From Psammoneis japonica (lineage: Eukaryota): a DNA stretch of 64,000 bases. This document shows, piece after piece, positions 15,961 to 64,000 of this stretch. How positions within the stretch are numbered: the first letter of the stretch is position 1; every line of letters begins with the position of its first letter. A model generated the notes under the pieces. It made no database searches. It was not told the DNA's origin and saw only the letters and a program-made list of their open reading frames with translations. The stretch covers positions 1-64,000 of the forward strand of contig QPGO01000074.1 in assembly GCA_008632985.1 (NCBI GenBank), written 5' to 3'. The translations under genes were made by a program, and so were the position numbers.

Positions 15961-18900
15961 TGACAGGATTTGAACAGGATTTGGGTGCGCGCGAAATGTC
16001 GCGCGCTGTTTAGTTTACCGCGCACAGTTTTGTGTGCTTTAGTTCCGCGCGTTCGCGCGCGATGTAGTTTGCTTTCGAGCCACAAGGCTCACAAGAATAA
16101 CAACAGTGGCCCGATTGTGCCGACTCACACGTCTTTCGGCTCCTGTGACGGTCTCTGAGTGGAGACTCATCTGCCATTTAGACAGCAGCAAGGAGTTGTT
16201 GTTTGAATTCTTGCCATTTGCCTTCATTTTCTGTCAGATTGACAGTCTTGCTCATTGTCAACCCATTGAGCAACCGCCATCGTCGTCCTTGATTTACCGA
16301 CGACGCTTTCAATTCTGCGTGGACCTCCGCATGTGTTCTACGTACATCGGCAAGTCTACGCGCATTCAATGCCAGGCATCGGCAGGAAGTTAACGTCACA
16401 GTCAAGTCTCCTTGCCGCTGGATGTCTGGATTGATCACACCACCTTTCATCACTGAAGACACACATTCAACGGTCACATCCAAGTCCATCCTTGATCCTC
16501 ATCCCTTGACACACCCATTCAACGGTTAACGGTCAAGAACCCTGCATGTTCAAGGATCTTCGTCGCTGAAGACATGCACACACACACATCTTCACGGCCA
16601 AGAACTTGTGCCCACTCTTTGGGCTGCGGCTTTGCTGCCACTCTACAAGCACACCGAGTCCATTGCACCTGATCTGCCCCGGACCACTGGTGCTCTGCAG
16701 TTCCACTGGGTCCACGAGGACGACTGTGAGAGCAAGCAGCCGTGATTGCAGCCTGCGTTGGGGCGAGGGTGTTTTTCCCGCGTTTGTTCGTTCGTCCACA
16801 GCGCCCAACGCCCACGTCAACTGGCCAGCCTGATCGGGAAATCCAACCGACATAAAATGAGAACGGTTCGGGGGTCTTGTCCACCTCTGGTCAGCTTGCC
16901 TGCAGGGGTTTACAACCCGCTGCTCCACTCGCAAGCAACCCAAAGTGCCGCCAGCTGCGGGTTCGGACGTGCCGGCACAACTCTACGGACCGGATGGGAA
17001 GTTTAGCACTTGACAACGAACGGGACAGCACAACCCGGCGACTTCTGATTTTAAGACAGTCCAAGATTTCAAGTCAAGTCTGGCTCAAGTCAAGTCTTTT
17101 TCAAGCCAAGTTCCAAGTCAAAACTCGAGTCAAGATCGCGCTCTAGATTGGATCCTGTCTTTTGTTTCTGCTGCACCGTCCTCCATCATGGTTCTCACGC
17201 GACAGCAACAAACCGAAAGCTTCAAATGCATTCCAGGCACTGTGCTCAATCAAGACGATGACAGCCCTCTTTGTTCTGCCCTGTCCATCAATGGGATTGA
17301 ATCGTGCGAGGAATTGTTCACGTTCTCACCCACCCAAATTGACGCCCTCACTCACAGAGACGGCGCCAATGCAGTGCCTTTGCCACGGACCCACAGAAAC
17401 CTCCTGGCAGCTTTGATCAGCTTCTACTTTGTCAAAGTTTGCAACGGTGATGATGTGACCAATGAACCCCAGTTGCTCACACCCGACGAATTTCGCAACT
17501 GCCGCCTTGGTCCGGACTGCTTGACCTCTCTGGCCACTGGCGCAGCACCCTCCGCACCTGTGCCGAGTCCCTTTCCATCCAAACCAGGTGAACCCAGTGC
17601 CATTTTGACACCAGCCTTGCACTGTGCCGCCACTCAGGTGTCCCCTGGAAGTGGTGTCAGTCGCGCCCCGCATGTCTTGACCAACCCGCCTGCAAGCAAC
17701 CTCGGCCCAGTGCAGGATTGCAGCCCTTGCACAGGCCCGCACTTCGAGACCAGTTGGGACACTCCACCCATGGCTTCCAAAGCTGCAGTCTTTGCACCCT
17801 GCAAACCACGTGCTGCCAACCTCCACGTGTTGACCGCTGTCACCCTTCACAGTCTTCATTTGGGAAGTGATGGAGATGACAACTTGCTTCTCGCATCTCC
17901 TGATGGGGAGCCTCCTTTTCCCATCATTGAATCTGTTCACAACAGTTCAACCGGTTCATCAGATGGGGAGTTCAGGACATCCAAGCAGCTTCATTGTCTT
18001 CGGATCCTCCAAGCATGCACCATGAGACCAGGCCTCCTGACTGGATGCTCCAAGTCTCGCACCTCGAGACTGGGCCTCCTGATTGGATGCCTCAAGTCTC
18101 GCACCTCGAGACTGGGCCTCCTGATTGGATGCCTCAAGTCTCGTGCCTTGAGACCAGGCCTCCTGACTGGATGCTCCAAGTCTCGTACCTCGAGACCAGG
18201 CCTCCTGATTGGATGCCTCAAGTCTCGTACCTCGAGACCAGGCCTCCTGATTGGATGCCTCAAGTCTCGTGCCTCGAGACTGGGCCTCCTGGTTGGATCC
18301 CCCAAGTCTCGCACCTCGAGACTGGGCCTCCTGATTGGATGCCCCAAGTCTCGTGCCTCGAGACCAGGTCTCCTGATTGGATGTCCCAAGTCTCGCACCT
18401 CGAGACCAGGCCTCCTGATTGGATGCCTCAAGTCTCGTGCCTCGAGACTGGGCCTCCTGATTGGATGCCCCAAGTGTCGCACATCGAGACTGGGCCTCCT
18501 GATCGGATGCCCCAAGTCTCGTGCCTTGAGACCAGGCCTCCCAACTGGACTCTCCACGTCTTGTGCCTCGAGACCGGGCCTCCCAATTGGATCCTCCACG
18601 TCTCACACCTCAAGACTCGGCCTCCGGATTGGATCCCCCAAGTCTCGCACCTCAAGACTTGGCCTCCTGATTGGATCCCCGAAGACTCGTGTCACAAGAC
18701 TGGCAAGTCCTTGTGGATCCCAGAAGTCTTGCAGCACGGGACTGGTTGCCCCAATCAGACATCTGCAGCCTTGCACCACAAGATGTCTTGCTCCAATCTG
18801 ATCCCCGAAGGCTTGCACCTTGAGACTCGTTTCTCCAATTGGATCAGTCTCTCAGGAGATGCAGCTGAGCTTGCAATCGGACTGGTGGAACACAAGACCA

Positions 18901-19667
18901 CCGCTTGTGCCTTTGAACTCATGCTTGCTCTGTTCCCCAAGTCGTGCAAACGCCATGCCACCCTGCACGAGCACTGCTCTGTTTTTCTGGCAGCAGCCCA
19001 GTGTGGCAACCGTCCCAAGAACCAACAGACAGCCATCAGTCTTCATGACCTTCGCTCAGGAAGTGAAGGTGATGTCAACTTGTTTGCATTGTCCTGCAAT
19101 GTTGCCCCGCCGTTCAACATTGTCAACCAGACCAAGCTTTGCTCCTTCCATTGCAAGTGCGGATGTGGAATCCCACAAGATCCCAAGTGTGCCTTGAGCT
19201 TTGAAAAGCACAACGGCATCTGCAATTGGGGAGACGCAGCTCATCTCAAGATGACACGCTTGGAGAATGCAGCGTTGCTCTCGGATCTTGATCCTTTCTT
19301 GTCTCCTCATGTTTTGGTGCTTTGACTCCAAAGTTCTTCAGTCAATCCGAAGTCGAATCTGTTTCTGTGACTCCTCAAGCAAACTGGGGAGTGACAGGAT
19401 TTGAACAGGATTTGGGTGCGCGCGAAATGTCGCGCGCTGTTTGGTTCACCGCGCACAGTTTTGTGTGCTTTGGTTCCGCGCGTTCACGTGCGATGTAGTT
19501 TGCTTTCGAACCACAAGGCTCACAAAAACAACAACAGCAGCCCGATCATGCCGACTCACACGTCTTTCGGCTCCTGCAACGGTCTCTGAGCAGAGACTCA
19601 TCTGCTGTTCAGACAGCAGTGAGGAGTTGTTGTTTGAATTCTTGCCATTTGCCTTCATTTTCTGTCA
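15961..19667 (+). mobile_element. Internally deleted Ty1/copia (CoDi-like) LTR retrotransposon
   Basis: 276-bp LTRs at 15961-16236 and 19392-19667 (TGACAG...CTGTCA); 5-bp TSD CTTCA; GGGGAG before the 3' LTR; gag-like start at 17188 (MVLTRQQQ...DDDSPL); pre-RT remnant KCGCGIPQDPKCAL...NGICNWGDA near 19155. Confidence 0.92.
18020..18850 (+). repeat. 42-bp tandem repeat, about 16 good plus about 4 degenerate units, inside the copia element
   Basis: Unit ACCTCGAGACTGGGCCTCCTGATTGGATGCCTCAAGTCTCGC; 14-aa periodicity in the overlapping ORFs. Confidence 0.95.
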
Positions 19668-35650: not shown

Positions 35651-35937
35651 CAATTTCAGAGGAATGCCTGGAGCAGCTGCGCACATGGCACTGATCCATT
35701 GTCTGCCCCTGATGGCAGTGTGCCTGGCATGTCATGACAACATCACTTGCGGAAGACATGTGATGGCCTGGCTCACACAATCCATGATGTGAACAGTGAT
35801 GGTTTGGGTGCAACACAAAATCCAAACAAACAAGGAATTTGACAAGATTCCCCATTTGCACGATCCCACTTTTTCTAGAGCAAACTGGCTCACAATTTTC
35901 ACAACAGCACTTTTATGACACATCCATGTTTTCATCA
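35651..35937 (+). repeat. LTR-like repeat homologous to 25291-25580
   Basis: Direct alignment; differences are mainly TG/CA swaps. Confidence 0.7.
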
Positions 35938-40708: not shown

Positions 40709-41973
40709 GAAAGATGTCTACGCGGCACTTTGCCGTCTTTAATTTTAGACATATTACTTGTAGTTCGGATAAGATTATGGGCAAGGATGCTTTGATTAAC
40801 AAGCCTCTAGGGCGACACTCGGCTATAGAGAATTCTTCCGTTGATTTTAATAAAAACGAATTGCAAGGATTCAAACAACTGATTATAATAACAGCAATGT
40901 GGCTGAAAGATCGTGTCCACATTCTGATGAAAAGACATGCTTCGGCACAGGCCCTCAGCACACACGTGTCGAAGGAATGCTCAATACATTTCACCTTGTC
41001 CCTTGCTCTGCCACCATGTGTCTTGAAAGCACGCAAATGACACGGTTGCCACCCTGCATCTCATGAAAGGAGCTGTCTTTTTTTTTCATCGCTGCATTGC
41101 TGGCATTCACATTTTCAGCTCCATGATTCAGCACTGTGATGGTTGGTAGCTACAAAGTTGAAAGGCAGGAACAACAAGAAATGATTGCATTGCAATCTTT
41201 GCCGGACATTTCACGCAAATGCCGGTGCAAGATGCAACCACTCATGCACTCCCCAGAGCTCGCCCTGTTTCCATGGTCTGCACAGAGAAAGACAGTGGCT
41301 TGCCCTTGTCCCAAGAGAAGGTGCTTGCTTTCTCACTCATCAACTTGACCTGCCCTCATGCCATGAGAATTTGGAGCTGCTGCTGGCTGTGCAAGCAAAC
41401 AAAGGCGTGATTCCTCCTGTCTTCTTGCCGCAACACAGCGTGTGGCAGCAGCCACACCCAGTGGCGCCAGCTGCTCTGGCTGTTGGCGACATTGTGTTCG
41501 TGAGGCTCACCACTCCTTGGGAGAGTCCTGTGTGCCCCTCCAGTGCCACCAGCCTCCTGGGGTTGCTGCTCTTCTTGGAGCCACCCGCCACAACATCACA
41601 CACTGTGGCTCTGCAGTGCCCTGCCTGAGAGGCCTTCGTGGGGTCTCCTCTGCCGCCACTGTCCCGCGCACCCACATCAGAGGCAGGTGGGAACTGTGAG
41701 CCCCCTGGCTTGTAAAAGAATGCTCTGTGGAGGCTTTTGCGAATTTTAGGAGGACCGATTTTTGCCACCGTCCGTCGTCATGGTGGAAACAGGGGGGGAG
41801 CGGGAGGCTCGAGCACACTGCTGGCTGGCAGCACATTGCATTGAAGAGGCCAGCACGGGCGGCGGAAGGGCGGGCGGCCGGGCTTCGCGCAAGGCGAAGA
41901 GCACGACCGGCTGTCGAGCATAGAATACTTCCAACCAAAATTTTGATGGCAAGAAGCACGACGCACGACGGCC

Positions 41974-43811: not shown

Positions 43812-45459
43812 TCATGCCGCCGTCTCGGTGGAAGTGACCTTTCCAAGCATTTTCAAACGGTTAGAGTCCATCACGGCAATACGTCCAAGAGCGGCGCACG
43901 TCTCGAAAGGCTCGACAAAAAGAGGCTGGCTGGGTTCAAACTCAACTTCAGCAGACTCAAACTGGGAGAGCTCCGGAGGGTTCTCCACCTTGGCACCACC
44001 AGTCTTCTTGGACTGCTTCCAGAGAATCTTGGTCATCTTGCACGCAACCTTGGCGGTACGGCAAAAGACAACGGGAGTGTATCCAACCTTGAGGACACCA
44101 GGGTGCTCCTGGACGGCAACCATGGCCTTGAAGGACTTGATGGGCTTGAGTTCACCCTCCTTCTCGACGTAAATGATATCACCGGGCTGAACCTTCTCGT
44201 CCTTGGCAATACCCTTGATGGACATACCAACCGAGTTACCGGGTCCGGCAGACTCCAAGGTCTTCTTGTGCTGTTCAATGGAGAAGATCTTCTTTCCCTT
44301 GAGGCCACTTGGGACGATACCAATCTCGTCACCAGGCTTGATAGTACCCTGTTCGACGGTACCGCAGATAATCTGACCCACACCCTTGATGTTGTACACG
44401 TTGGAAACGGGAAGACGGACGGGAAGCTCGGGGTGACGGACAGGAGGCTGGATGAAGTTGTTCAAGGCATCAACCAAGGTGAATCCCTCAACGACAGTCT
44501 TGGGGTTGAGGTTGGCCTTCCAGCCCTTGTACCAGGGAGCCTTGTCGCTCTTCTCGACCAAGTTGTCTCCGTTGAATCCAGAGTAAGGAATGAAGGGGAC
44601 CTTCTTGGGCTTGAAGCCAATCATTTGGAGCATCTTGACAAACTCGTCCTTGATCTCGTTGAAACGGTCCTCGGACCAGTTGCAGGCGTCCATCTTGTTG
44701 ATACCGACGATAATCTGCTCAACACCCAACAGGTAAAGAAGACGGGCATGCTGACGCGTCTGTCCTTCTTCCACACCCATCTTGGCGTCCGCCTTGGCAA
44801 TGGCAGCCTCGAAACCACCCTTCTCGGCAGGGACAAGCAAAAGACCGACATCGGCCGTGGCGGATCCGGTAATCATGTTCTTGATGTAATCCTTGTGGCC
44901 GGGGGCATCGACAATCGTGTAGTGGTACTTGTCCGTGAAGAACTCCTTGGTGTTGCACTGAATCGTCACACCACGCTCACGTTCCTCCTTGCACGTATCA
45001 AGGTAGTAGGCGAAACCGAAAGAAGACTTTCCCTTCTCTTCGGCCATGGCCTGCAACTTTTCCATCTCACGAGCCGAGATACCACCCTGCTTGAAGATCA
45101 AGTGACCGCAGGTCGTGGACTTGCCTAAAGAACGATTGGAAACAAAAACAGAGGGGGGGGGTAAGTTCAGGTTTTACACAAACAGTGTTTCTCAGGACCA
45201 GAAATTGTCGATACAGCGCAATTCAGCGTCAAGACTCTCGCCATGGTCATAAGTCAACATGGACGAGCCATAGCGCACGTCTCCAAGCTCTCCATCGACT
45301 CAAACCATGTCGATCCCGTCAACACCACACGTTTCAAAAAGGGTCATTGTTCCAAAAAAAGATGCATCGGACGAATCATCTTGCGCTTCCGCTCCACTTA
45401 CCGGCATCGACGTGCCCGCACACGACAAGGGAGAGATGCTCTTTTCCTTCACCGCTCAT
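43812..45459 (-). CDS. EFL: Elongation factor-like GTPase (EFL); intron 45125-45401
   Basis: [29 protein letters not shown], the EFL-type insert before [19 protein letters not shown]...TTTAG intron restores the frame. Confidence 0.93.
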
Positions 45460-46828
45460 GGTTGTTGTTTACTGTTTTTGCTGTCTTGCAATTTATGACC
45501 ACAAGCTGTTCCACTTCTCACGATGAGAATGATTTTGTGGTGGAGAGGATCGACGTTCGAAGAGAGGCAACGAAGACCGTCGGCGGCCGGCGGGGGTGCC
45601 CGACCCGTTCAGAATTCGATGGCTGAGATTTCTTGCGCGCGGTGTGCGCGAAAGATATTGTGTGGTCGCGTGTGGTTCTCCGGGTGTCCACGTCATTCCC
45701 ATTAACGTCAACTTGACGTCATGACGAGCTACGAGGTCCAATAATGTGTGATGGAGAAAACAAGCCATTTTTTAATCCAGACCCTTTTCCTCTTTGTTCT
45801 TCTTTTTTTGTACACACATGCTTCCATGCATAGATTTGCAGGCAAGTGGCATAGCTGCTGCTGCCAGACAAGTTCACACCTTTTGGCTGCTCTCTCACAC
45901 TGTGTTCTGCACTCGGCTTTGTTGCCACACACGCTGCGGAGGCCTCTTTGGTGCTTTGGGGGACACGATGGTGCCACGCTGTTGTGGGGTTGCAGGAGTG
46001 ACAAGTTTTCATGTGCTGCTTTGCTTTTTCATGATGTTGTTTGTGTGGTGATGGGTCTGCAGAAAAGGCACGTCCAAGGAAGCTTGGGGGGGTTGGAAGA
46101 GCTGCACTTGCGGCCCGTTTTCAGCATGTTTGTTTTTCGAGATTTCTTCCAGTTGCTTTTTCTTGCAAGCTGCAAATGCTTTGGCAAAGTCAGATTCAAG
46201 GTGTTGATGGCCACCTGGACGCACATCGAAATGGTGGGACAATGGATCCAAAAGTCAAATTCGCTGCAAAAAATTATGATGATCTCGATGACCACAAAAC
46301 ATTTATGTGTCGCACAGACATACGAGCGACATTTTTATTTAACGCCAGAACATGTCGTGGGTAATTTAGAGGGTTCTGATTGGCTCTGACAGAATGAGAA
46401 CTCCAACCACGAGAATTTGGCGGGCGTCGCAAGGCTCTCCAAACGCATCACAAAAGAACATGAAACACCGTTCAACAAGTGCAACACACCTCAAGCACGA
46501 GACGACAAAAGCAAAGTAGAAAAATCTAGGTGCGCGAGACGAATATCTGTATGAGGCATTATAGAGAACAGATGTAGTCGTAGGGTTCTCGAATAAGAAT
46601 GCACCGAGAGATCGGTTTCTTCACGGTTCCGTGACTCGTGTGAGACGATCGTGTCAATTTCGATCCTATGATATCGCCGCGCCCACTCAAGTTCTCTGTC
46701 ATTCAAATAGAACGATTCTAAAAACATCTTTCGTTGTCTATCCATACCTCACAGAATCGACAACAGAAACTCTGTTTCCAGACCCCTTCTAAATCCAAGG
46801 GACGAGAACAAAAAGACTGAATAAACAA

Positions 46829-48662
46829 ATGCGCTTCAACACGCAAACGATCCTACCAACACTACTACTGCCGGCACTTTCTTTTTCAATAGCTGACAGA
46901 ATAGATTTCTACCAAGAAACACAAGAAGCGAAAGTTCGTTTGCTCAGAACTGACAAATACCTCCAGAATGAACAAGACGACGCAGTGCCCACCGCTACTA
47001 CTACGGCCCACCACCGCTCCATTCACCAGCGTCGTACTTTGGTCGGCATGGGGGAATGGGTCCAGATGGGAGACGATATCAATGTTGGAGAGAGAATAGG
47101 TTCCTTGGAAATATCTCGCGATGGGAATCGCGTTGCCATGATGGTAAATAATTGGATAGTTGGTGGCGTTCGTGTATTCGAGAGAAATGGTTCCAGCATG
47201 ATGTGGCAGCAGCTGGGAGACGGTGTCGGTCAAGCCACTGGCGTCGAAAGACCGGATCATTCGTCATCATTCTCCATGACAGACAATGGGCTCCGCGTTG
47301 CCGTTGGTGTTACAGATTATAGAAGAGTTCCCATGTATGATTGCAGATTTGACCCGGTTCCGAATGACTGCAATTGGGTTCCCGAAGATGGATATGTAAG
47401 CATTCATGATTGGAATGGAGTACAATGGAAAAACACTGCACTATTTATTGGTAACGCGACTCGCAAAGGCGCTCATGTGTCATTGTCGGGCGATGGACAG
47501 CGCATAGCGATAGGTACCGAAAGCATTTCACAGAACAGTGTTGAAGTCTTTGAGTTTCATGGGAAGTCTTGGCAGCTCATAGGGACCTTAGGTCCTTGGC
47601 CCACTCCACATCCTCTTTCCGTTCACATGTCTAGAAATGGACAACGTGTTGCCGTCTTGAGGGGAAATCGTGATGTCGAAGTTTTTGAGCAGGTTAAATC
47701 ATCCTGGACTCAGGTGGGACCTGCGATAGATGGTGATGGAATGGCAAACAACGCCGTGTCCTTGTCGGATGCGGGAGATCGTGTTGCTATTCTCGCCTTC
47801 ACCTACACCCCGTCTCGCCAGAGGCAAACATCTGTTCGCGTTTACGATTTGATCGATAATTTGTGGGTCAAATCAGGGAATGATATCATTGGCAACGACA
47901 GGTCCATGTCATTATCGGGTGACGGACGGCGTGTCGTGGTTGGTTTCCAAGAGGAAGGCTCTAGAGGCGTTTTCGGAAAGCTGCTCGTGTATGGACAACT
48001 TGATGGGTCTTCATGGACGCCAGTGGCAAACAAGCTCAGATCAAAAGTGCAACGGGACGGCTTTGGTGATATCAACGCAATTTCATCAGGAGGAAATGTA
48101 CTTGCCATCGGAATACCAAGGAGGAATGTCGTACGAGTTTTCAAATTTGAAGGCGCACCGGTACCCAAGGATCCCTTTCCCGAAGATTTCAAACGAGTCA
48201 CCTGTGCCTACATCTCATGTCTTCGTAAAGTTATCAAGAAATTGGAGAGTCGCACCACATTCAAAAAGGGCCAGCAAGCGTACGACGTATCCAAACGCAA
48301 AGCATTTGCGTCCATGGCCGCAATCAAGAATCAAGGGAATGTGGTTGGATCCCTCAACAAGCTCAAGCTGTCTATGGAATACATGGAAAGTCTACAAATG
48401 ACGGCTCCCGGGTTCGTAGAAGACATCGGTAGGAAAGCAAGTACCTGCGCAATCCTTCTTGTTGAAAACTTCGTTGGTGCATACTCTGGAAGTGGCGTAC
48501 TTAATGCTGGATTCCTTAATCAGGTGAGAAAGACAAATTTGGCTATCGCTCGGTCCAAGAAAAAGGGCAAGCAATGGAAGAAAGTGTTGGTACTAGTCAG
48601 GCAGCAATTTGGAGGATAATGAAAAGCTGGAGGAGACGAGTGTCCCTCTTTGCAGGAATTAG
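46829..48662 (+). CDS. Secreted beta-propeller-like repeat protein with the same C-terminal domain (ORF stops at 48619; homology continues to 48662 across two 1-nt gaps)
   Basis: Signal peptide; repeats WxQxGxxI and VSLSGDGxRxAIG; C-terminus aligns with 38975..40708. Confidence 0.82.
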
Positions 48663-48699
48663 CTAAGTGGATTTCGCGGGATATTCGCATCCATCATAG

Positions 48700-49440
48700 T
48701 CTGCATTATACTTATCTGTCGGAAGGCTACATCCTCTTTCCGTTCGAATGTCTGGAAGTGGGTAACGTTGTAGTTTTTGAGCAGGTTGAATCCTCTTGGC
48801 TCAGGTAGGACATGCGATCGAAATTCGTACATCGTCTCACTTTCCATTTCAATCGGGGGGCCGCATTGCAACTCTCTCCTTATTGACTCGTTGTTGGTCA
48901 AATCAGGACATGAATTCATCGGCAACGACGACTCGGTTAGAGATTGAAAAGGAGCTTTTGGCGATATCAGTGCAATCTCAGCTCATGGAAATCGAATTGC
49001 GTTCGGAAGTCCGTTGAGTGAGGACGTTCTTGTTTTTAGATTTGAAAACATGACTAAGCAGAATGATCCCTTTCCCGAAGAGTTCAAATGAGTCACCTGC
49101 GCCCACACCTCACGTATTCGTATGGTTATCAAAAAGTTGGAGAGGCACACCACACCCAGCAAGGGCTATAGCAAGCGCACGATGTATCCAAACGCAAAGC
49201 ATCTGCGTCCACGGCAGCAACCAAGAATGTGAAGGGAATGTAGTTGAATACCTCAACAAGCTCAAGCTGTCCATGGAATCCCTGTCGGCTCCCGGGTTCG
49301 TAGAAGACATCGGCAGGAAAGCGAATACATGTGCAATCGAAAAAGGCCAAGCAATGGAAGGAAGTGTTCTCGCATGTCAGACAGCAATTTGGAGGATCAT
49401 TAATCACGAACAAACTGGAGGAAACTTTTCCAGGAAATAG
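48700..49440 (+). pseudogene. Degraded partial duplicate of the preceding gene
   Basis: LNKLKLSME...APGFVEDIGRKANTCAI with deletions and frameshifts. Confidence 0.8.
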
Positions 49441-50183: not shown

Positions 50184-52022
50184 CTACCGGCGGCCTCAAC
50201 CGGTCCCGGCGTCCGTGACTGAAATTTCATAACGGTGAAGTACGACAATCGAATAATTCGATTGGACTCAACCGGTCCCGATTTTGCATTAAAAACGGCA
50301 TGTTGTACTTTGATGCATCTCGCCATGGCATACGTCGTGATGACGATGCGTTATGCAGGGGGTATCTTTTTCTACCATTGTTTTAAAGAGGTTGATATGT
50401 TGGTTTGGTTTCCTGGGGTGCTTTGGTTGCTACACATGCTATAAACGGTTGCGTGCCTCGACTCGTGACTCGATTACGGCACGGTGCTGGTAACATCTGA
50501 ATGGTCGACAACGTTGCGTGGTAAGTTCTTTCCATATTTTCTCATTTTATACCGTTTATGCGCTCACTAAAGATGTTGTTGGTGCTTTGTTATAGCTTCA
50601 TAGGTTCATTGATCGTCTCGTACGGTTGATTATCGCTTCTGCAATATTGACATCTTGTTCACGGCGTTTGCACCGCATCAGCGCTCCAAGTAAGGAGCCT
50701 TTCGCTTGCTCCCACGCAATGATCTTTTGTGGAAAGTTTCATATAATATTGTTGGGCTTGTGACACTCTTGGCTTGCTTCTAAGGGACTTGATCGGCTCT
50801 TAATAACGGCATTTCGTTTTTCGGCCATCACAATTTCTGAAAAGTGCATGCATTCAGAATGAAACGATGCGAAGGAGCATCGAGGACACCTATGACGTTG
50901 GTTTTTGTCAGACAGACGTACCATAAACCAAAGAAGCTTTCCCTGTGAGTATGTTGTGATTGATTGAGTTTTGGTCTCGTTTTGACGAAACTCGCATGCC
51001 TCACTAGCGTTTTTTGGTGTCTTCAGTTCATGCGTCAGGCATGTGGTCTATAATGACCCTTTCTTCCTACTCTGCAATGGCATTATCATCACTATCTAAG
51101 AAATTATATCGCCCACGCTATTTTGGGAGATCTTGGTAGTGTATCAACTAGTCTAGGCTTTGCAATGGGTAAAATGGGGAGGTGGAGGCTTTTATGGCCG
51201 GGCTCCTCGCCTACTCTTGGATGCGTGGATGCAACGAACAGCTGGTGGTACTTGATGCAATGAAATTTGGTAATGCAACTCAGAACTACCTCTGAAAGGT
51301 GCACTAGTGAGTATACTGTGATTTGTGTCCTCATTGGCTTATTGTTGTGTGCTTTGTTCCGCTCATATTTTCATTTTGCCTGTCATTTTTTCAGCATGGA
51401 TATCTAGGACTGCGAGCGCTTAAAGTGGCCTTTCCATGCCAATGCTCTACACAACTGAAGTCCTTTGATAATAGTTGTTCCTTTGGGGAATCAGATTGTG
51501 GATCTTTCAGCATCTAGTGGGGTCTAGAGAGGTACGAGTTATGGATGCACTGTACCGCTAGAGTGCGCGTGCGCGTGCTTCGCCATTGCGAATGATGACT
51601 AACCGATCTTACAGATCTTAGGTGGAGACAATTGTCCTGGTCTTGCATCCGTGAGGCAACTGTGGAAGTATCAAGGAAACTATCGAATGCATTGTCCATT
51701 TGTGATCTTCTACGGGTACTCGAAGCGGCGTTTTCGGCATTTTCCGTCGACGACGAAAAGCTTGATAATCCATTAAAACGACTCATGGTATTTTGTCATT
51801 CTTTGGAGGTATGATAGTATAACTCTTGGTATTGTAGTTTTCTTTAGTGGTATGATTGTATCGCTTGTCCGTCGGGAAGAACAAACTACCGGTATCTTGC
51901 GTTGTCATTGCGCTGTGGGGCTGATGCGGCGCAGCGGCGCTCGGAATTCAAATCGAGCGAGCGTCCGTCAGTCAGCCGGCGGGACCGGTTGAGGCAGCGG
52001 GACCGGTTGAGGCCGCCGGTAG
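50184..52022. mobile_element. Non-autonomous TIR DNA transposon, copy 2 (inverted relative to copy 1)
   Basis: TIR CTACCGGCGGCCTCAACCGGTCCCG at both ends; 4-bp TSD CATC (50180-50183, 52023-52026). Confidence 0.88.
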
Positions 52023-52199: not shown

Positions 52200-55100
52200 C
52201 CAGATCTCCTTTGAGCTGCGAGATCAAGAAAGCAATGTTCAGAACATTTTGTGACTCACTGTGCTCTGAGAAAACAGCAAACACACTCTGCTTTTTTGTG
52301 CACAAATCTCAAGACAGTCTCGCGCAAGTCAGCTGTCGCTTCAACTCACAAGAAAATGCAGCCAAAGCCAACCCAGTTCAATTGTCAAAAGCACCTTGCA
52401 TTCCATGTGCCTCCATGTGGACTTCCACAGATGCTCGCTGATCTCTCTGGGCTGCAAAAGGACACATTTGTGTTGAGAGGGGGGTGGCATTTTTGGAGCT
52501 TCCACATTGACGAAGCACAAAGCACGCTGGTCACTCTGGCAAAGACATCTGGTGGTGACAGGCAAACATGTGGGCAGAGTCTAAAATGAAAGAGATTTTT
52601 CCAGCACTTGCTTTGAAACAAGAGAGCCAAGCATGGCCAAAAAGTGCTCCAGAATGGACTGACAAACAGCGGCGCATGAGCCATCGATGTTGTGACAACC
52701 AGGCACAGCAGCTGTTGCAAGCAACACTGCCTTTCTTCATTTCATGATGGACAGACTGCATGTCAAGCAGAAATTGAGCAGAGTTTCATCTTGTTGCAAC
52801 TCTCTGTGCCACATGTGAGAACACATTGCACAACAATGACAACACAAGCAGCACACCGTGAAGACCAGTTGCCACCTTCCTGCAAATTGCGCTGTGTGCA
52901 ACATCATTGTCAACTTTGGCTCTGATGTGTTTTGAGCAGCAATGGCAAAAACTCTGGGCTTTTGGCATCCCTGACAATGGCGCACCAGGCTTGGCATTGT
53001 TCAGCGAGTTTGTCAGAGATGACAGAAATGTCATTGACCCAGCAGTCTGTCAAAGTCAGAGACACTGTGTCATTCATGGATGCTCTTGGCATCCTCATTT
53101 GATGGACAGAGAGGAAAGCTGAAATGAGAAAAGGGGCAATGTTGGCAGCACCTGCTTCTTGGACCCAAGTTTGCACCATGATGCAACAGCCAACCAGCAC
53201 CCACTGCTTGCTGCTGTGAGAATCCAATCTGTGAGGGCATCATGGGTGCTCTCACTTCATTTTGTTTTTTCTTCCTGATGGTCAAATCATCATGTTTTTC
53301 TTCCCAATGGCCAAATCCAGGTGCATTGCAACATGCCCCTCTTGGCACCTGCACCACCACAACCAGAATCATGGCAAAGATGGAAGACTCAAGATCACAA
53401 AGAGCATGACTGAGATGGAGAGAAATTTGTGCACCCCATTTCTGCCTCCAAATTGCAATTCACCTGAGTGAGAGGAACATCTTTCACCTTTCAAAAGAAG
53501 AGTGAGGCCATTGGTTTCAGCTCCATTGGGTCTTGTGCAGAGCTGGCAAAAGCTCTTGGTGTTCCCAGCTTGTGTTGCACATCTTTTTTCTTGTGGGAGC
53601 TGGAGTGAGATCATGACAAATCATTGCATGAGAAAAGCACGAGTGGGCAATTTGCACCCATCAAGCATCATGTTCTATGAAGCCCCAGTTGTGCTGTTCA
53701 CAAGTCACTTCTGTGGTCTCTTCTCAGAGCAGCAGCAACTCAGACCTCATGTGTTCTTAACAAGGTTCTTGTGTTGACATTTGACATCTTGCAACATCTG
53801 TTTGCATCTGCAACAACCCACCAATGATGATGACAACAAAACAGTCACATGGCACTGGCAGTGTGACTGCCAACACATGACAAACTGATTCTGCAGCTGG
53901 CGCACGACCTTCCACTGAAGCACCATCATTGACCACCAGCCAGCAGTCCACTCACTCAATTGCTGCCTTCACACAAAAAAGTGCCTTGTCTAAAAGTGCA
54001 AACAAGTCTTGGAAAAGAACAACAGGAGCTTTTCCACCCAGCCTGGACTGGACCCAGTCAACCTCATGCACTTTGCAACATGGACGAGCCTTCTTGCTGT
54101 GCTCTGCTGCTGCAAAGTGCACTGCCCACATCTCAGCACAAATGCCCAAAGGATCACACTTCCTCTTGGCAGATGATGTGATTTGCAACTCAAGACAATC
54201 CCAAAGAGCTGCGCTGCCTGACATCATCATGACAGTGTCCCTCATCATTGTCTTGCCATGAATGAGTTGCAAGAGCATGTTGGCAATCTCTGCAGCTGTT
54301 CCAAGCAAGCATCAATCATGATTTCTTGCCACAAGCCAGCACCCTCTATTTCAAACACCTCACAGTCCACAAAACAAATGACTGTTTCACAGAGGGACCC
54401 CATGAATGCCCAGACCAAACAAAACTGGCACGTGGTGTGTCCCTGTGGTTGATTGCTTGGATTGTGTGTTTTGTCTTTCCACCAGAGGTGTGGTTCCATT
54501 GCTCAGAGCTGAATCAACCAAGTCAAGCTTGCACTTTTTTGCACAAATGCAGCAAATCTCCAGTGCACAACAAGTTGCACTGTCAATGCAGAGAAGCCAG
54601 AGCACCACACATGACATTGTCATCCACTGACCCACCAAACAACAGTGCGCTTGACTCCTCTTTGGCATCAATGGCTTGAACTGCACCGCTGGGAGGCAAA
54701 GCACCATGGGCAGCTTGGCATCTTTCTCATCATCACAAAGAGTCAATTCTGAGTCCAACAAAATTTCCAGTTCTTGTGCCATCACCTTTTCCTTGGCTGC
54801 GCGCAACATGAAAAAAAATCTGTCCAAGAATTGAGTTGTTGGGAAACTTTTTCCAATCCTTGAGAGCCTCCAATTCAGTCTCTCATGATTGATTGGCACA
54901 CACTTCAACCCCAGTTTGGACATGGACTGTGGCAAGTCTGCAGCACTGATGGCTCCCCACAGACAAGCCTTCAAGCATTGGACATGGTGACCAAGTCACA
55001 GACCGTCCAATCTTTGCCTGCAGGAGTGTGCAGAGAGCATGCTGTGCATGCAACACACAAGCCATCAGCATGTTCTGCAGCACTCTTGATGTGTTCCATC

Positions 55101-55720
55101 TAAAACACCACACTAAAAAGGAAAGCTCATGTGTGCAAAGAGAATGGCTCCAGCAAAACAGCACTGCAACACCCCCTGCTTTGGCAACTTGTCTTCTCTT
55201 GACATTTTTTCTCAAGACGGTTCTCTGCACTCTGAAGACAAAATTGACCTTTTTTTAATGCCTCTTTTCCTGAATCTTTTAGAAACCAGGCTTTTGGCAA
55301 GCACAAAGCAAGTCCTGACATTTGACATGCAAACCCAATCTACAAGCATCAGTCAGAAGGTCAATGAAGATCATGGTGAAAACAGCGGGACAAAAGAATG
55401 TTGCATCATGGTGCAAGCAATTGGGGGCGCCAGAAGCAGAGCACCACCGCTGTCGTCTGAGAAAAATGTGCCGTTTGAGAATCCACAGTGCCGTGTGCTT
55501 GCCGGCACCACAAGCAATTCTGCACTGGGAATTTTGCTGTGTTGCTGTGACAGTTTTTCAAGTTGGTGTGGCATTTTCATGGTTGATTCTCAAGTGGGAC
55601 ATCAAGCTGGTTTCTGGCGCAATGTTCTTCCAAGAAAGAGCAGCAGGGAGGAGGAAGCAAAGGGTGCACATGAGAAGCACACAGCTCTGGGGCAGAAGAC
55701 AATCCAGACAATGGGAAGCC
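52200..55720. other. TpA/CpG-depleted decayed block, probably TE-derived, family not recognised
   Basis: Composition only; no diagnostic motif recognised. Confidence 0.5.
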
Positions 55721-56033
55721 ACTCTTAAGAGGAGTCGCTTTACAAAGTGTTTGCTCTCTTGCAAGAGGACAGACAGGTCGCGGAAGAGGACAGACCGGTC
55801 ATTGGCACGTTTCGAATTGTCTCGCGCCAGAATTCGCGAATCATCATCAATCTCAAAATCGTGACAGCAAACATCCGCGGTCGCGTGGATCGTGGAGAGA
55901 GCCCACACTGCATCAAGAGGAGTTGCGGAATCGCATTGTTCCGATTGCATAAGCACCGCTGCTACTGTCGAAACGATTGCCGAGAGCCAAACGCTACAAT
56001 ACCAACGGCTGGTTGACAAAACAACTAAGCATC

Positions 56034-57737: not shown

Positions 57738-58199
57738 TTTTCAAAGTATGTTATTCTGCAGAATTACAAGGCGGGCAAAGAGTAAGAAACACAAAAGCAT
57801 CGGTGCATGTAATTCTGACGGGCGTTTTTTAGTGTACGTGCAGAATAATGGTGCGACACGTGTTACTGCATCGGTCCAGAAAGGTTGTTGGGCACGTTTC
57901 AAAACAAAAGTGCGATCCATGATTGAATAGAAAGTATCTTCGATTCTTTAACCACGCGATTCTAGACTAAGCAAAACTGTGAGGAGCGCCATGGTCATCA
58001 GTCATCATAGAAAGCACTCACCGATCAACTCAAACTGTTGTGTGGTTGTTCGAGTTCGTTGCAAGCAATGACTGTTTTGTGCGCTCCGCGCGCACGCTGG
58101 CCGTCGAAACTGTTCCACGTACTGACGTGCAGTCTACCGGCACCGGTACAGTACGCACGTACAGACAGCAGTCCTACAACACCAAGGGAATGGACTGCA

Positions 58200-60500
58200 C
58201 GTAGTTGCTTGTGCTGCCAACACCCCAATGAAGAGCCAGACACAACCAACGCTGAGGCGTGGTCTGCCAATGCTGGTGCTTGTGCAGTGCCTGATGCCAT
58301 GCAACCTGCAGTTGGCACTCTCACACACACTGACTGCTGTTGCCATTTGTTGAGCCCTTGCCTTCCTCTTTTTCTTCCGCACAATGAACAAACCTTCCTG
58401 CAGGGAGTGTGCACTCTTTCAGCACAGGAAATGAGTTCCCACAGCCTTTTTTCAACTTGAGGGATTTTTCTGCCCTTTTTTCCTCCATGTCAAGGGTTTC
58501 TGTTTTCCTCCCTTGTGTTGGGTTCACATGTCAGGGGCTTGGCATCTCAAGCGAGTTGTCCCCAAAACCCACGGTTCCCTTGAGTTGGTGGTGTCCCACA
58601 GTGGGTCACACCATGCCAGACATTTTTTGTTTCATGACAACTCTTGATGTCAAATGATGTTGTCACTGCCACAGTGTGAAGCGCTCTTCTCACTGCTCTC
58701 ACCCTGGCTGCTGATGCAACTGCCGTGCAGTCAGACCATGACGACCACACTGTCATGACATGATGATGTGCCAGACAATGTTGCTGGCCTGTTCCAGCTC
58801 CAGGTGATGTGCACAGGTTTAATTCCCATCACTGGCCCATTTTTCATTTGGCTCAATGAACTCCTTCAAAATCTTGTTTTTCCCAAATCGAAGGGGAGTG
58901 CACACAAAACTCATGTTTTTTGGTGTGCACTCACCTTTCAATTTTTGAAGCGATCAAATTTGAAGGAGTTCAATGTGCCAAACTGCACAGAAAATGGGCC
59001 TTGCACATGATGGATTTCTAATCACCTGGGGCTGGAAAATGCCTGCTTTCACAGCGTCAAATGTTTGTTGCTTGCTGTGGAAGTCTGGTGCTGCAGAAGA
59101 CATCAGCGCCACACTGTCAGATTTTTTCTTGCTCCACAAGGATGCATCATTCTGTGTCACTGCCATCAGTGTCAGTGCTGTCAGATTTTGTTGTCCATTG
59201 ACTGCACAGCCCGTCCAATCTCAGCAGGGCCAGCACAGCACAATGTCATTTTGCTTGTGACTTGAGATGCCAGACATTTGGGCTGATCAAATGGTGCGTT
59301 GCAGTCAACAAAATTCCCAATTGTCAGAAATGACAGCACAAACATGCCTTCTCATCAATGCAGCAACATTTGGGATGGCATCAAACAGTGGCCATGCAGG
59401 CCAATGTGCCTCTGTGGTGCTGGCTTGCATGTTGCCAATGTCAACGCCAATGTTGTCAAGCTCATTGTCTGGCAACCCATCAAATTTCATTTTGTTGCTG
59501 TGCACAGAAACACTGCTGCCATCTGTTGGCATGTTTGCGGCAGCAACAGATGACATTGTTCCCATGCTGTTGTCCTCCTCATGTTGCGCCGATTAAAAAG
59601 ACTGGTCATCACACCACTGTGGCTCCACTTCTCTTCATTTTCTTGGGGCAGCTTTGACAAGCAAAGAAGTGGCTTGTGCAACTTTGCAGCCAGAGCCAGT
59701 GGCTTTTGCTTCTCATGTGTGCTTGGGAGATGATTGCCTTCCACAGACAGGACACACGGCAGCACCCATGTCATCTGCATCTTCTCCTTCAACTGGCTGC
59801 ATGCAACACAATGCACTGACAAGAAGCAATCCATCGCCAACCCACTCTTCACATTGTTGAGGTGACAAAGCTTCAAAGGAAGCAATGTGGCAAAGACATG
59901 TGTCTTTTTTGTTGCTCAAACTGCATCGGAACAGAACCGGCACAACTTCGGTGTCTTTTTGAAGTCTTGACACACCACCTTGTGTCCGCTTGGCAGCTCT
60001 GAAAAACTGAACTCTTCACTCTTGCTGCCACAAACACATTGAAAGGGCTCTGCTCCTCTCACGTGGAATGTGTTTCTGTCATGAAGTGGTGACACAATGC
60101 GTGACAACATGGAGAGGGCTGAAAAATCTTGCCGGCTTCCCCCCAGCACATCTCATGGCACACACTGCATTCCATGGTGCAGTTTGAACAACACCCTTCA
60201 GCACGGAGCTGCTGAAGTCATGCAGTGAGGAGTTGCAAATGGTTTGGTGTGACGGGGATTGCCGTGGGGGCAGCAACATGTCAACACCTTGTGGTGGGTG
60301 TCAAAAATGAGGTGCAAATGAAATTCAACTTTTTGCTTTTTTACAAACAAAAGCATCGCGCACTGGTGGCAAGACGGTTGGTGCCGCAAATCACAAAATC
60401 ACCCACCTTGTGCAGCATGACAAGGCAAATGACCCGTTTTTTGACCGTTGGGTCATGCAAGCCATTTGAACTCAAATTTGAACACGCTTGCGCGAGCTTG
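58200..60500. other. TpA/CpG-depleted decayed block, family not recognised
   Basis: Composition only. Confidence 0.5.
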
Positions 60501-60585
60501 GTGAGCAAATGACAGTTTGTTGCTCTTTCTCTTGCTTGTTTTCACTCATTCTTCCGAAGAGCAACAAAGAGCAACAAGCCGCTAG

Positions 60586-62950
60586 ATGGCTTTTGACACT
60601 GTCGACGTGGCGCAGGACACCTCCGCTGCAGCTTCCCATTGTTTGCAGGAAGAACTTTTGTTCAGTCCATTGTGGATGCGCAACAGCAGCAAAATGCAGG
60701 TCAAGGGGCCCAAAACGCCCCAAATGCCAACGACCCGGCTCCACCGCAAGGAGGAGCTGCAGCAGCCGCTGCGGCGGTCCCAAACGCTCCGCCACCGCCT
60801 CCGCCTCAAGTTCCGGTGCCTCCGTTGGCACTGCAAGCAGCAGGAGCCTTTGCACAGCCACCGCCACCGGGTGCCCAAGCTGTGCCGGCGGCGCCGCCGG
60901 TCATTTCGACTTGTCGTGATTTTTACCTTGCTGCCGCTGACGACCCACATCGGGGGGCATGCAACGATTCGATGCTGGATTTCGTGGTCCCGGTTCAGGG
61001 ACCTTCCAGATGCAACCCCGGAATGCCACATGGGCAGGTTGCAGTGGCGTCAAGTCATGATCAGCCGATGGCAGTCATCACACACTGTCGAGAGGCTGGT
61101 GCAGCGGACGAAGGACAGATTCAAGTCCTCCACCGCATCACCACTTATCCGACAACCGTGGTTGGGCCCGCCGAACCGTGGGATGGTGAGACGCATGCAA
61201 CAGCGGGTGATCCAACCCATGGACAGTTCACTCTGGTCGAATTTGGAGACGACTCGTTCAACCCAGCACAGCAGGGGACTGGGGTGCCGACTCATGCTGC
61301 ACTCCTGGAGCATGTCACCAACAATGCGGACAGCCTGCATCCGCATCTGGCTGAGAATGCACAAAATTCGGAGGTCGTGCGAACTGGGAATGCAGTGCAT
61401 GTGCCATTTGAGTTTGTGCCACTCTTGTTGGCACAACCCTTGTGCCCAAAACAAGCCCATCAGCGGGTGCACGGCGCCGCCACAGCAGCTGGCAAAGTGG
61501 CTGCCATTCGACCACTGCTCGATTTTCTTCGCGTCGCCTGCTGTGCCATTGCCAACAACCAAATGGTGTCTGTTGTGACACGACCTTGGCCTGTCATGAC
61601 ACGCCCCCCCAATGAAGCCCTCATTCAATTCTTCGATGCCAAGATGTCGCGTGACATCCCTGGGAGACTGGGCCATGCGCCACCCACTGCGCAGCACTTC
61701 CAGCCGGTCATGCAAGCCATTGAAGGGCTCACCACTGAGCAACGCCAACTTCGACTTGATGCTGCAGCACGTCAGCAAGCGGCTGCCCGGGGCAAGGCAC
61801 CCAACAAATTTTGGGGACCTTTCGGTGTCACCAAGCTTGTGAATTGGTGCCACGTCCTCAACAAGACGGCACTGCCGCCTGTGTGGGCCGCACTTGCCGC
61901 AGCGCCAAAGACAGGTCACCTGGCAGTTGTCCAAAATGCAATTGACGAGCAACGCCAGGCAATGGCCATCCATTTCGACGCACCTGTTGCCGTCAGTCTC
62001 GTCACCAAGCTCGCACAGCTCAAATTTGCTGGTCACAATCAGGACAAGCCTGCCCAAGGCATCACCCTCTTCCAATTTGGGATCACTGCACCAGACAGCG
62101 CCGAACAGATTGCCTGCCACAAGGCCATGCATGTGCACATTCATGGCGGCACTGCGGCCCCGTCCCTCCAGGACACTCAAATCCTGGAAGCTCCAGACAA
62201 GGCGCTCATGGCAACGACAATGCAAGCCGCCCAGCAGTCACACGATGGATGCCATCTGGTGCTTTCTGCTTTGCTTGGGGCCAACCATCCAGTCGTCCAG
62301 TGGCTCACCCGTCAACGTCAAGACATGGACCGGTGCACCAATGAATTGGCAGTGCAGGCCACTTGGCACCCAAACCTTCCGGCGGACTTTCAACGCTGTG
62401 CGCAGATTGAAGTTCGCCATTGGTTCAAGGCTCAAGAAGCCTCACTCCACCCGTCACCATTCGCACCCTTCAACGTTGTGTTTGAAGCAGCTAAAGGAAT
62501 CATCCACTGGCGTCCGCATTTGCCTGCCAACACGCAAGCTGCCAACCCCAGTTCTGTGCTGGGGGCCGCACCGGCTCCAGCATCTCAACGCCAACCTGCC
62601 AACAACACGGCCCCTGCCAGCCAAGCTGCAGGAAGCAACAGCGCAGCCCGCAATCCCTCCTGCGACAACCGCTTTGCCACGCTCCGTGACCGCCCCAACG
62701 TCAGGTCACGTGATGTCAAAAACTGATGTGCAAGGGACAACATCGACCTCCCCAAAGATGCCCAAGGTCGCCCTCGTTGCTTCCCCTGCCATTGCAAAGG
62801 GCAATGCAACACCAACTGTGGCTTGTCCCATGATCATCGCAATGACCACACAGAAGACGAGCAGGCCACCCTTCTCACCTGGGGTGAGGAGAACTGGAAG
62901 ACCGAACAGGTCTTTGGCAACGGCCCAAGTTCGGGGACTTGGAGCCAAGA
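60586..62950 (+). mobile_element. gag-like ORF1, probably of a tyrosine-recombinase (DIRS/Ngaro-like) retroelement, truncated
   Basis: 695-aa ORF continues past TGA(62724) into the terminal knuckle CFPCHCKGQCNTNCGLSHDH; no pol follows. Family call is from memory. Confidence 0.5.
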
Positions 62951-62980
62951 GCCTTCACCCATCACACATGGCATGAGACC

Positions 62981-64000
62981 ATGATGGCAGCTGGGACGAC
63001 CAAAAGTGATGAGTGGCTTGCTCCAATCAAGGGTCGTCTTCAAGAAACAGCAGGAGGAGACAAGTGGGAGGAGGAGCGTTGGACAGATTTCATTGAGGAA
63101 GCATTGTGGTCCCTGCACGAGAATGATGTCGTTGACGGAGACACGATTCGCACCGCCGAGGGCCTTGTCAAGTGCGGAGTACGAACCAAGAAGCATCTGA
63201 TTGCAATGGCCGGAAAGCCTCCCGACGATGAAAAATTGTCGAGAAAGCTTGAGGCGAAAGGCGTGTCTCTCATCATCTGTGCCATGTTGTTCAATGAGCA
63301 CGTCCATGTGAATCGAGATGGAAAGTCTGACTGCTGGCATTGTGCATGTTGAACATGAGTCAAACATGCTGAACTGTTGCTTGCACTTCTGTCCCAAACT
63401 AATGCTTCTTGTCAGTGGTGCAAGAAAACATGTTTCGTTGTTAGATGATTTTATTCAACCTTTCTCATTTTCAATTTTGGTTTGTTCTTAGACTTTCATG
63501 TCGAAGGCTCATCGAGTGCTGTTGAGGGACTCACACTTGAGCCCAAGCAAGAGCTCCATGATCCGACCAAGGATCGCAGCACAACATCTGTGCCAGATTT
63601 TTTCACGCCCACAAAGAGCAACAAGCCCAGGGACATGTTGCTGAATCGCCTTTTGGAATTAGAAGGAAAAGGAGATGGAAAACAAACACCTGATGTCGCT
63701 CCCTTTCTTGCCATTGTTCAATCGAGTGGTTGCGGGAAGACCCGATCAGTTCTGGAGCTAGCTGAGGAACAAAGAGTTGTGCACTTGCTTTGTTCTAACA
63801 TCAAGGGAGGTCTGCACTCTCCAAAGGTTGTCACTGATTTTATCAAAAACATCAAAAAGGCCGGTGCAACCGAATTTCGTGAACGACGAGCTGCCACATT
63901 TCTTCAATGTGTCAAGAAGTGCTCCGGCAAGTGCAATGCAGGACAAGAGTTGTTCTCCGCTCAATTTGAGGACGGGAGATTCGCCAATTTCTACGACGAG
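62981..64000 (+). pseudogene. Crinkler-like P-loop NTPase gene, partly TpA-converted, runs off the window
   Basis: Frame open from about 63492 to the end: APFLAIVQSSGCGKTRSVLEL...RVVHLLC (Walker A at about 63720-63745); upstream exon-like ORF at 62981-63320. Confidence 0.6.

Follow-up and report, generated by a model that had tools for sequence, protein, structure and literature searches.

The 64-kb window analysed here (the full 64,000-nt stretch) carries on its forward strand a long open reading frame (ORF; P0001, 60597-62726) that we take to be the principal ORF of an unclassified, repeated mobile element. The ORF is embedded in one of seven sharply bounded blocks, A to G, from which the dinucleotide TpA (TA) has been almost completely removed, and in four of these blocks CpG (CG) has been lost as well. 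The scarcity of TA in the ORF is mutational and not compositional, and the per-site rates of TpA and CpG loss stand in a ratio of roughly 20-40.

For the 2351 nt from 60600 to 62950 (hereafter the ORF stretch), the initial annotation had reported 3 TA in about 2.35 kb with CG remaining abundant. Our recount gave the same 3 TA, at 60924, 61146 and 62492 (observed/expected ratio, o/e, 0.03), and 138 CG (o/e 0.69), together with an excess of CA (274, o/e 1.58) and TG (192, o/e 1.67). Three or fewer TA would arise with a probability of 6e-39 if mononucleotide composition set the expectation (100), of 4e-20 under an expectation of 55 (taken from the o/e of 0.55 in non-depleted sequence of the window) and of 5e-14 under one of 40. 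The initial annotation had allowed that GC content or codon usage might by themselves explain this count. When the ORF residues were back-translated with the codon usage of eight long ORFs from non-depleted parts, the simulated sequences held a mean of 61 TA and never fewer than 43 (500 draws), as compared with the 3 seen in 60597-62723. The same back-translation of three intact homologues yielded 80-88 expected TA, while shuffling the order of the ORF's own codons gave 33 (minimum 20; n=1000). Codon usage, with its prediction of 61-88 TA, fails to account for the sequence. For CG, 130 were seen in the same interval against 148-160 simulated, which places the ORF at 3-5% of the codon-usage expectation for TA and at 81-88% for CG. 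In every block the combined deficit of TA and CG was approximately equal to the excess of CA and TG (158 versus 178 in the ORF stretch, and 1563 versus 1461 in block C).

The effect on the encoded protein is that expected of TA>CA/TG changes, since TAT/TAC>TGT/TGC is exactly TA>TG and TAT/TAC>CAT/CAC is exactly TA>CA. At 0.28% of residues, the tyrosine (Tyr) content of the ORF is lower than in any other of 109 full-length family members, whose median is 2.64%, so the possibility raised earlier that homologues are equally Tyr-poor does not hold. An alignment to the homologues also supported the initial impression that cysteine (Cys) or histidine (His) stands where Tyr would fit: at the 11 columns where half or more of the 10 closest homologues carry Tyr, the ORF has Cys at five, His at one, Tyr at two, Phe at two and Trp at one. 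At the eight columns with at least 60% Tyr, it has Tyr once, Cys four times, His once and Phe twice, and at all three columns where at least 9 of the 10 carry Tyr, the ORF has Cys. Other residues are retained at 50-100% of columns at the 60% threshold; arginine (Arg) is retained at 17 of 24, with CpG-type changes at three (to Gln, His and a stop). Because conserved Tyr columns hold Cys or His and codon usage predicts 61-88 TA, the loss of TA must be mutational. At an invariant Tyr column where the ORF has Cys, two other Tyr-poor relatives, P0005 (0.36% Tyr, 50% identity to the ORF) and P0015 (0.68% Tyr, 30% identity), have His; these are independent hits.

The reading frame was described initially as nearly intact, with 2 Tyr in 695 aa. 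The long frame and the two Tyr stand; the length is 709 codons stop to stop, the first in-frame ATG does not come before codon 126, and an Arg codon has become a stop at 62724. This copy is therefore dead, on account of the stop and the missing early start. The homologous frame continues behind the TGA, as tblastn alignments with P0002 and P0003 pass through it to reach 62897 and 62906, respectively. The single stop in the true frame is a product of CpG decay. The openness of the frame is itself weak evidence, because a TA-free sequence can stop only at TGA, and it is a poor guide to age, given that no sense codon becomes a stop through TA>CA/TG. The change can make TGA from TAA, and it removes TAA and TAG on both strands. 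With TAA and TAG removed and no new stops made, the blocks therefore contain long overlapping ORFs in several frames: beside the true frame, the ORF stretch has overlapping ORFs of 330, 377 and 395 aa, and its frame +1 contains 3 stops in 792 codons.

A profile built from the ORF and two homologues recovered 1390 representative proteins at E≤1e-3, of which 213 at E≤1e-30 were mostly about 700 aa long, suggesting a large, uncharacterised family of mobile-element proteins with at least 1390 representative clusters. The ORF size in this family, of which P0001 represents a dead copy, is about 700-800 aa. The members that we looked up derive from assemblies of metagenomes and runs; their contigs measure about 1 to 36 kb, mostly 2 to 8 kb. 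Pfam gave no match for P0001 at E≤1 and none for 16 homologues at E≤0.01, and no PHROG family was found for the ORF. An AlphaFold2 model of the closest intact homologue, P0002, reached a pLDDT (predicted local distance difference test) of 90; fold searches with it returned no match (Foldseek best E 0.16 in PDB and 0.19 in BFVD; best VIA-align Z 3.8). We found no longer fused forms of the ORF, which is weak evidence, and two scans of metagenome contigs plus one of viral contigs confirmed no relative of the ORF. When terminal repeats or a target-site duplication (TSD) were sought for the ORF's own element, alignment scores were no better than those of shuffled sequences. In a DNA-like sequencing run (X1; depth about 56 in the flanks), the summed contig depth over 60.0-63.3 kb was 300-494, which fits several related copies and is not to be read as a copy number. 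At 61332, block G has CA where all six X1 contigs have CG. Contigs from a second run (X2) lacked cover over 58008-62676 and were not used as evidence here.

We then placed the ORF in the context of the window by drawing blocks from the TA and CG o/e of 250-bp bins. In blocks A, D and G, TA is lost (o/e 0.04-0.11) and CG is kept or intermediate; in blocks B, C, E and F both are lost (TA 0.00-0.05, CG 0.10-0.24). The rest of the window has a TA o/e of 0.48-0.64 and a CG o/e of 0.87-1.08. Block borders are sharp, and those of TA loss and CG loss coincide to within about 100-200 bp. The coordinates of these blocks, of the ORF and its parts, and of the repeat pairs used for dating are collected in Table 1.

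Table 1. Features of the ORF, the depleted blocks and the dated repeat pairs in the 64-kb window (CA-vs-TG counts are sites; o/e, observed/expected).
Feature	Position	Strand or orientation	Description
Open frame P0001	60597..62726	+	Stop to stop, 709 codons, 2 Tyr; dead copy of a mobile-element ORF
Premature TGA	62724..62726	+	Homologues have Arg; CGA>TGA, CpG-type; truncates the ORF (alignment)
Cys/His-rich C-terminal tail, homologous frame behind the stop	62727..62906	+	Nearly invariant Cys/His columns in alignment
Block A	15600-19750	.	TA lost, CG o/e 0.66; LTR element
Block B	20250-21500	.	TA 0, CG o/e 0.15; both lost
Block C	25000-38500	.	13.5 kb; TA o/e 0.05, CG o/e 0.10, CA+TG o/e 1.8-2.0; old direct repeats
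Block D	41000-41750	.	TA lost (o/e 0.10), CG intermediate (o/e 0.34)
Block E	52250-55750	.	TA o/e 0.05, CG o/e 0.17; both lost
Block F	58203-60250	.	TA o/e 0.02, CG o/e 0.24; adjoins block G; no homology found
Block G	60250-63250	.	6 TA (o/e 0.04), 167 CG (o/e 0.70), GC 0.566; holds the ORF stretch
5' LTR	15961..16236	+	276 nt, TG..CA ends; keeps 6 TA, 21 CG
3' LTR	19392..19667	+	276 nt; keeps 1 TA, 19 CG
Old pair 1	25290-25599 vs 35650-35958	direct	315 columns, 9 transversions, 16 other transitions, 18 CA-vs-TG; kept in both: CG 1, TA 0
Old pair 2	28407-29378 vs 34404-35451	direct	1057 columns, 51 transversions, 80 other transitions, 62 CA-vs-TG; kept in both: CG 0, TA 0
Control paralogue pair outside blocks	4812-6169 vs 50184-51539	inverted	1359 columns, 144 transversions; kept in both: CG 44, TA 42

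When 128 bins of 500 bp were classed by TA and CG o/e, those with TA below 0.15 spanned the whole range of CG (11 bins at ≥0.5, five at 0.3-0.5 and 35 below 0.3), those with TA of 0.15-0.3 included eight with CG ≥0.5 and one with CG below 0.3, and those with TA ≥0.3 kept their CG (67 bins at ≥0.5, one at 0.3-0.5 and none below 0.3). Thus none of the 128 bins had lost CG (below 0.3) while retaining TA (≥0.3). The initial annotation's description of the two processes as uncoupled is borne out for their tempo and not for their place, since the borders are common to both losses.

Among the 95 TA sites that survive in the depleted blocks (taken as 15700-19750, 20250-21500, 25000-38500, 41000-41750, 52250-55750 and 58250-63250), 46% are flanked by T and 9% by A, as compared with 27% and 23% for CA and TG sites (chi-square p 6e-11); TTA/TAA may be converted inefficiently, or these contexts may be favoured places for new TA to appear. 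When 83 ORFs of 110 aa or more in the depleted blocks were searched against Pfam, a single match came back, below its cut-off (TRAPPC8_C_arth, E 0.0084). Block B also contains the only N in the window, at 21352.

The order and timing of the losses could be read from a long terminal repeat (LTR) element in block A. This element is 3.7 kb long, is bounded by the 5-bp TSD CTTCA (15956-15960 and 19668-19672), and has no recognisable reverse transcriptase; its interior contains a 42-nt tandem repeat in about 23 copies (17898-18869) within a 595-codon open frame. Because LTRs are identical at insertion, the differences between them arose after integration. The two LTRs align without gaps and differ at 21 of 276 positions, 19 of them in TA/CG/CA/TG steps. 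Of these, 17 are TA-type, comprising three TA-vs-CA sites and two TA-vs-TG sites (with the TA always in the 5' LTR) and six CA-vs-TG sites that account for 12 positions; two are CG-derived (one CG-vs-CA, one CG-vs-TG). The remaining two mismatches are other transitions, and there are no transversions. A site with CA in one LTR and TG in the other implies that the ancestor had TA or CG there and that the two copies were struck separately, each on a different strand; the six sites seen here derive from TA, because only 2 of the 21 CG sites show even one loss.

If double losses that agree between the LTRs are taken to be as many as those that differ, there were about 18 ancestral TA, of which the 5' LTR has lost 12 (67%) and the 3' LTR 17 (94%); when this is not assumed, at least 6 of 12 and 11 of 12, respectively, were lost. 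For CG the corresponding losses are 0 of 21 and 2 of 21. Expressed as exponents, the losses come to about 2.0 for each TA site and 0.05 for each CG site, which gives a ratio of about 40, while the ORF itself gives a ratio of about 20 (-ln 0.04 versus -ln 0.85). Per nucleotide, TA loss in the LTRs exceeds other changes roughly 280 times. On the 3' side, TA depletion continues for 170 bp outside the LTR. On the 5' side it extends about 570 bp upstream of the LTR, in sequence that is likewise poor in CG; the element was probably inserted into an older decayed block. Within block A there is a gradient, with more TA kept in the 5' part than in the 3' part.

Older repeats extend this comparison back in time. 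Collapsing the sequence to purines and pyrimidines recovered two pairs of direct repeats in block C, with 86-94% identity in the reduced alphabet; a standard repeat search had missed the first pair and found only a 123-nt fragment of the second, and a more sensitive purine/pyrimidine BLAST added only noise beyond the pairs already found. Transversion divergence is 3.0% for old pair 1, 5.3% for old pair 2 and 10.6% for a control paralogue pair outside the blocks. The number of CG sites kept in both copies falls from 19 in the young LTR pair, where a single TA is kept in both, to 1 and 0 in the old pairs, so CG loss rises with age. The pairs therefore form a series: at 0% transversions most TA has disappeared and CG remains, at 3-5% neither is left, and outside the blocks both persist even at 10.6%. 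Because the control pair keeps 42 TA and 44 CG despite 144 transversions, the process is aimed at the blocks and is not genome-wide. The claims of the initial annotation that older blocks had lost both dinucleotides, and that TpA is lost first and CpG later, both find support in these data: the first from blocks B, C, E and F and their repeat pairs at 3-5% transversions, the second from the three dated pairs, which lie in neighbouring elements and not in the ORF's own.

Taken as a whole, we consider it probable that the ORF belongs to a dead mobile element that underwent TpA hypermutation after integration, with slower CpG decay acting in the same domains. Under this proposal, a mobile element would integrate into nuclear DNA, and a mutation process would then target whole domains of mobile DNA, changing TpA, and almost only TpA, to CpA or TpG (A:T>G:C transitions). 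In the ORF stretch this process would be near completion, with 3 TA left of the 61-88 expected. A second, slower decay of CpG to TpG or CpA would work on the same domains, such that older elements lose both dinucleotides; in the ORF stretch it would so far have removed about 10-20% of CpG, including the change that made the premature stop. The direction of change, its TpA specificity, its timing after integration in the LTR element, the sharp common borders and the difference in rate are demonstrated in this window. The post-integration action was established from the LTR element and not from block G itself. The ORF's element is probably young, as suggested by its CG retention, its three CpG-type lesions and the CA at 61332 where X1 has CG. 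The loss of CpG is presumably driven by deamination of 5-methylcytosine. As for the enzyme acting on TpA, the one candidate so far put forward in print for this signature is an ADAT2-like DNA adenine deaminase, a tentative assignment that we would not yet favour over all others combined.

Several observations weigh against this explanation. There are only three dated pairs, of which only one is a proven LTR pair, and the figure of about 18 ancestral TA in that pair assumes that concordant double losses were as frequent as the six discordant ones. The ORF's own element has no repeat pair in the window, so that its youth is judged from CG retention and from its neighbours, which is partly circular. 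The residuals in block C (46 TA and 73 CG per 3139 CA+TG) misfit a constant 20-40-fold ratio, and at equilibrium they would imply similar rates; either some contexts are refractory, or the TpA process acts as an early burst. Finally, four tandem gene units outside the blocks (6310-14030) show no clear TA>CA/TG excess, and among 25 polarised differences between three near-identical tandem units, four are TA>CA/TG and two the reverse.

An alternative that we judge unlikely is that the blocks differ in CG through different targeting and not time, with TpA editing acting on all mobile DNA and CpG decay only on methylated DNA, so that block G would be unmethylated whatever its age. Blocks F and G, with CG o/e of 0.24 and 0.70, adjoin within one TA-free zone (58203 to about 63250), block G has no independent date, and the misfit of the residuals in old blocks to one constant rate ratio would also be accommodated. 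However, the three dated pairs are ordered as time predicts, with CG kept at 0 and lost at 3-5% transversions. In addition, CG o/e is graded over the seven blocks (0.70, 0.66, 0.34, 0.24, 0.17, 0.15 and 0.10) and does not fall into two classes, and block G already has CpG-type lesions (the stop at 62724 and position 61332).

It is also conceivable, if quite improbable, that one enzyme is responsible for both losses: a deaminase acting on pyrimidine-purine palindromes, fast on the A of TpA and slow on the C of CpG, with no role for methylation. The coincidence of the two sets of borders and the fact that both losses end in CA or TG are in line with this idea, as is the citation, in a preprint on the alga Bigelowiella natans (B. 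natans), of reports that ADAT2 enzymes act as deaminases on A as well as C in DNA (Mettrop et al., bioRxiv 10.64898/2026.01.13.699255). On the other hand, the same preprint gives only 1 of 211 changes in a large viral insert as other than A>G or T>C (10.64898/2026.01.13.699255). Moreover, the standard account of CpG decay in silenced repeats is a methylation-driven one, which calls for no additional activity.

Very unlikely, in our judgement, is editing before integration, in which an RNA or cDNA intermediate was hyperedited in an ADAR-like manner and the copy arrived already free of TA. Known adenosine-to-inosine (A-to-I) RNA editors do prefer a 5' U, according to the preprint (10.64898/2026.01.13.699255), and the timing of the changes in block G cannot be fixed. 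Yet the LTRs differ from one another at TA-derived sites on both strands (three TA-vs-CA, two TA-vs-TG and six CA-vs-TG), and the last of these need post-integration hits on both strands. Only 2 of the 21 LTR mismatches fall outside the dinucleotide steps, whereas RNA hyperediting also edits other A contexts, and TA depletion runs 170 bp beyond the 3' LTR into the flank. The same signature is, furthermore, described as having arisen in integrated DNA in culture (10.64898/2026.01.13.699255). We therefore rejected ADAR-like hyperediting as the source of the LTR differences. That the family simply avoids TA and Tyr through codon usage, GC content or selection, as the GC-rich composition of the region (0.586) and the low TA outside the blocks (o/e 0.48-0.64) might suggest, is scarcely credible given that simulations never fell below 43 TA in 500 draws, that Tyr is normal in homologues, that invariant Tyr are Cys or His here and that the copy is dead.

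Other parts of the window were characterised alongside the blocks. The window is eukaryotic nuclear DNA. The X2 contigs have GT..AG joints of 75-94 and 269-277 nt, one of which lies at the 5' end of a 453-codon EF1A-like gene that is intact (43815-45173, minus strand). Cover of this gene by the cDNA-like X2 contigs is deep (43815-45173 and 45124-45400), skipping 277 nt with GT..AG on the minus strand. Relatives with 58-68% identity lie on giant-virus metagenome contigs, where their TA o/e is 0.64-0.84 versus 0.40 in the EF1A-like gene. We considered the window as a giant-virus insert and did not call it one: the EF1A-like ORF keeps 8 of 10 conserved Tyr and is covered by spliced X2 contigs.

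When X1 was compared with the window, at least 15 differences fell in the single-copy interval 44001-49312, among the 40 listed of 298 differences; five of the 15 had TA in the window versus TG or CA in the run and one was the reverse, a hint only that TpA changes also separate window and X1 outside the blocks. One X1 contig (depth 28.9) joins 59541 to 63788 with 19 other letters between. The junction has neither a TSD nor terminal repeats, and the contig may represent a paralogue, a chimera or a presence/absence allele. Position 63788 lies within an ORF. The ORF at 63449-64000, downstream of P0001, has one relative and no Pfam family.

At the other end of the window, units of about 1.9 kb are repeated in tandem over 2035-14030, and each carries an ORF of 250-375 codons that has no Pfam family; three units are 98-99.7% identical, and the fourth and two upstream copies have diverged. 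An inverted repeat of about 1.9 kb (4292-6169 and 50184-52022) has arms 44 kb apart that are 78-96% complementary. The arm at 50.0-52.0 kb has high summed depth in both X1 and X2, with several GT..AG joints of 75-94 nt in X2.

A process of this kind is already in print for one alga, in the 2026 preprint; its quantitative relation to CpG decay is new. The present window extends the TpA signature to an LTR retrotransposon and further repeats, where it has reached saturation, and the divergence of the LTRs proves that both strands were hit in DNA already integrated. It also provides a first estimate of tempo, which exceeds CpG decay about 20-40-fold and background a few hundredfold, and the finding that both decays have common domain borders. 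There are practical consequences too, as the long spurious ORFs in several frames of edited blocks can mislead gene callers, while the TpA process hides repeats from ordinary alignment and lifts GC by several percent in young elements. More speculatively, and with more doubt than confidence on our part, the source of this DNA may not be B. natans, and TpA editing may be a wider eukaryotic defence operating in domains of CpG decay, possibly through one deaminase system directed at pyrimidine-purine palindromes, which would leave a two-speed clock. If this were true, the combination of fast TA and slow CG loss would date insertions.

The closest known system is that of B. natans, and in a full-text literature search the signature was reported only there (10.64898/2026.01.13.699255). 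In mutation-accumulation lines of this alga, two integrated viral regions received 231 of the 302 new point mutations in nuclear DNA, and 230 of these 231 were A>G or T>C, stated to be all on TpA, at a rate of about 6e-7 per site per generation, or about 1000 times background (10.64898/2026.01.13.699255). The preprint also reports 124 clusters of 1-kb windows depleted in TpA and enriched in CpA+TpG, and an enrichment of reverse transcriptase and DDE domains among low-TpA coding sequences; its authors propose an ADAT2-like DNA adenine deaminase (10.64898/2026.01.13.699255). The likeness extends to TpA>TpG/CpA transitions, confinement to foreign or mobile DNA, a rate that exceeds background by orders of magnitude, action on integrated DNA and an excess of CpA+TpG. 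There are also differences. Here an LTR element and repeats are near saturation (o/e 0.02-0.11), whereas the B. natans viral insert has a Rho of 0.45, and 3.7% of the dinucleotides in non-depleted sequence of the window are TA, as compared with 6.0% in the B. natans nuclear genome and 3.3% in its viral insert (10.64898/2026.01.13.699255). The terms 'CpG' and 'LTR' do not occur in the preprint text as available, and the relation to CpG decay and the LTR dating come from the present window. A literature search for cytosine methylation in B. natans returned nothing usable.

The CpG component resembles the methylation-driven decay of vertebrates and plants, in that CG>TG/CA changes and a CA+TG excess mark blocks B, C, E and F and are beginning in G; unlike in those systems, it is here the slower of two processes. 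Fungal repeat-induced point mutation (RIP) likewise imposes a dinucleotide-specific transition hypermutation on repeated or mobile DNA after integration and leaves blocks of skewed dinucleotides. RIP, however, changes C to T mainly at CpA, raising TpA, lowering GC and creating stop codons, whereas in this window TpA is destroyed, GC rises and the TpA changes can turn no sense codon into a stop. With TA at an o/e of 0.03, CA at 1.58 and TG at 1.67, the direction is the opposite one, and RIP was rejected as the process at work. Finally, editing by ADAR and APOBEC enzymes shares with the changes described here the character of deaminase-like, context-dependent transitions directed against selfish nucleic acids. 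Enzymes of that type act before integration on RNA or single-stranded cDNA, on one strand and with a looser tie to one dinucleotide, whereas in this window both strands of integrated DNA were hit, almost only at TpA.

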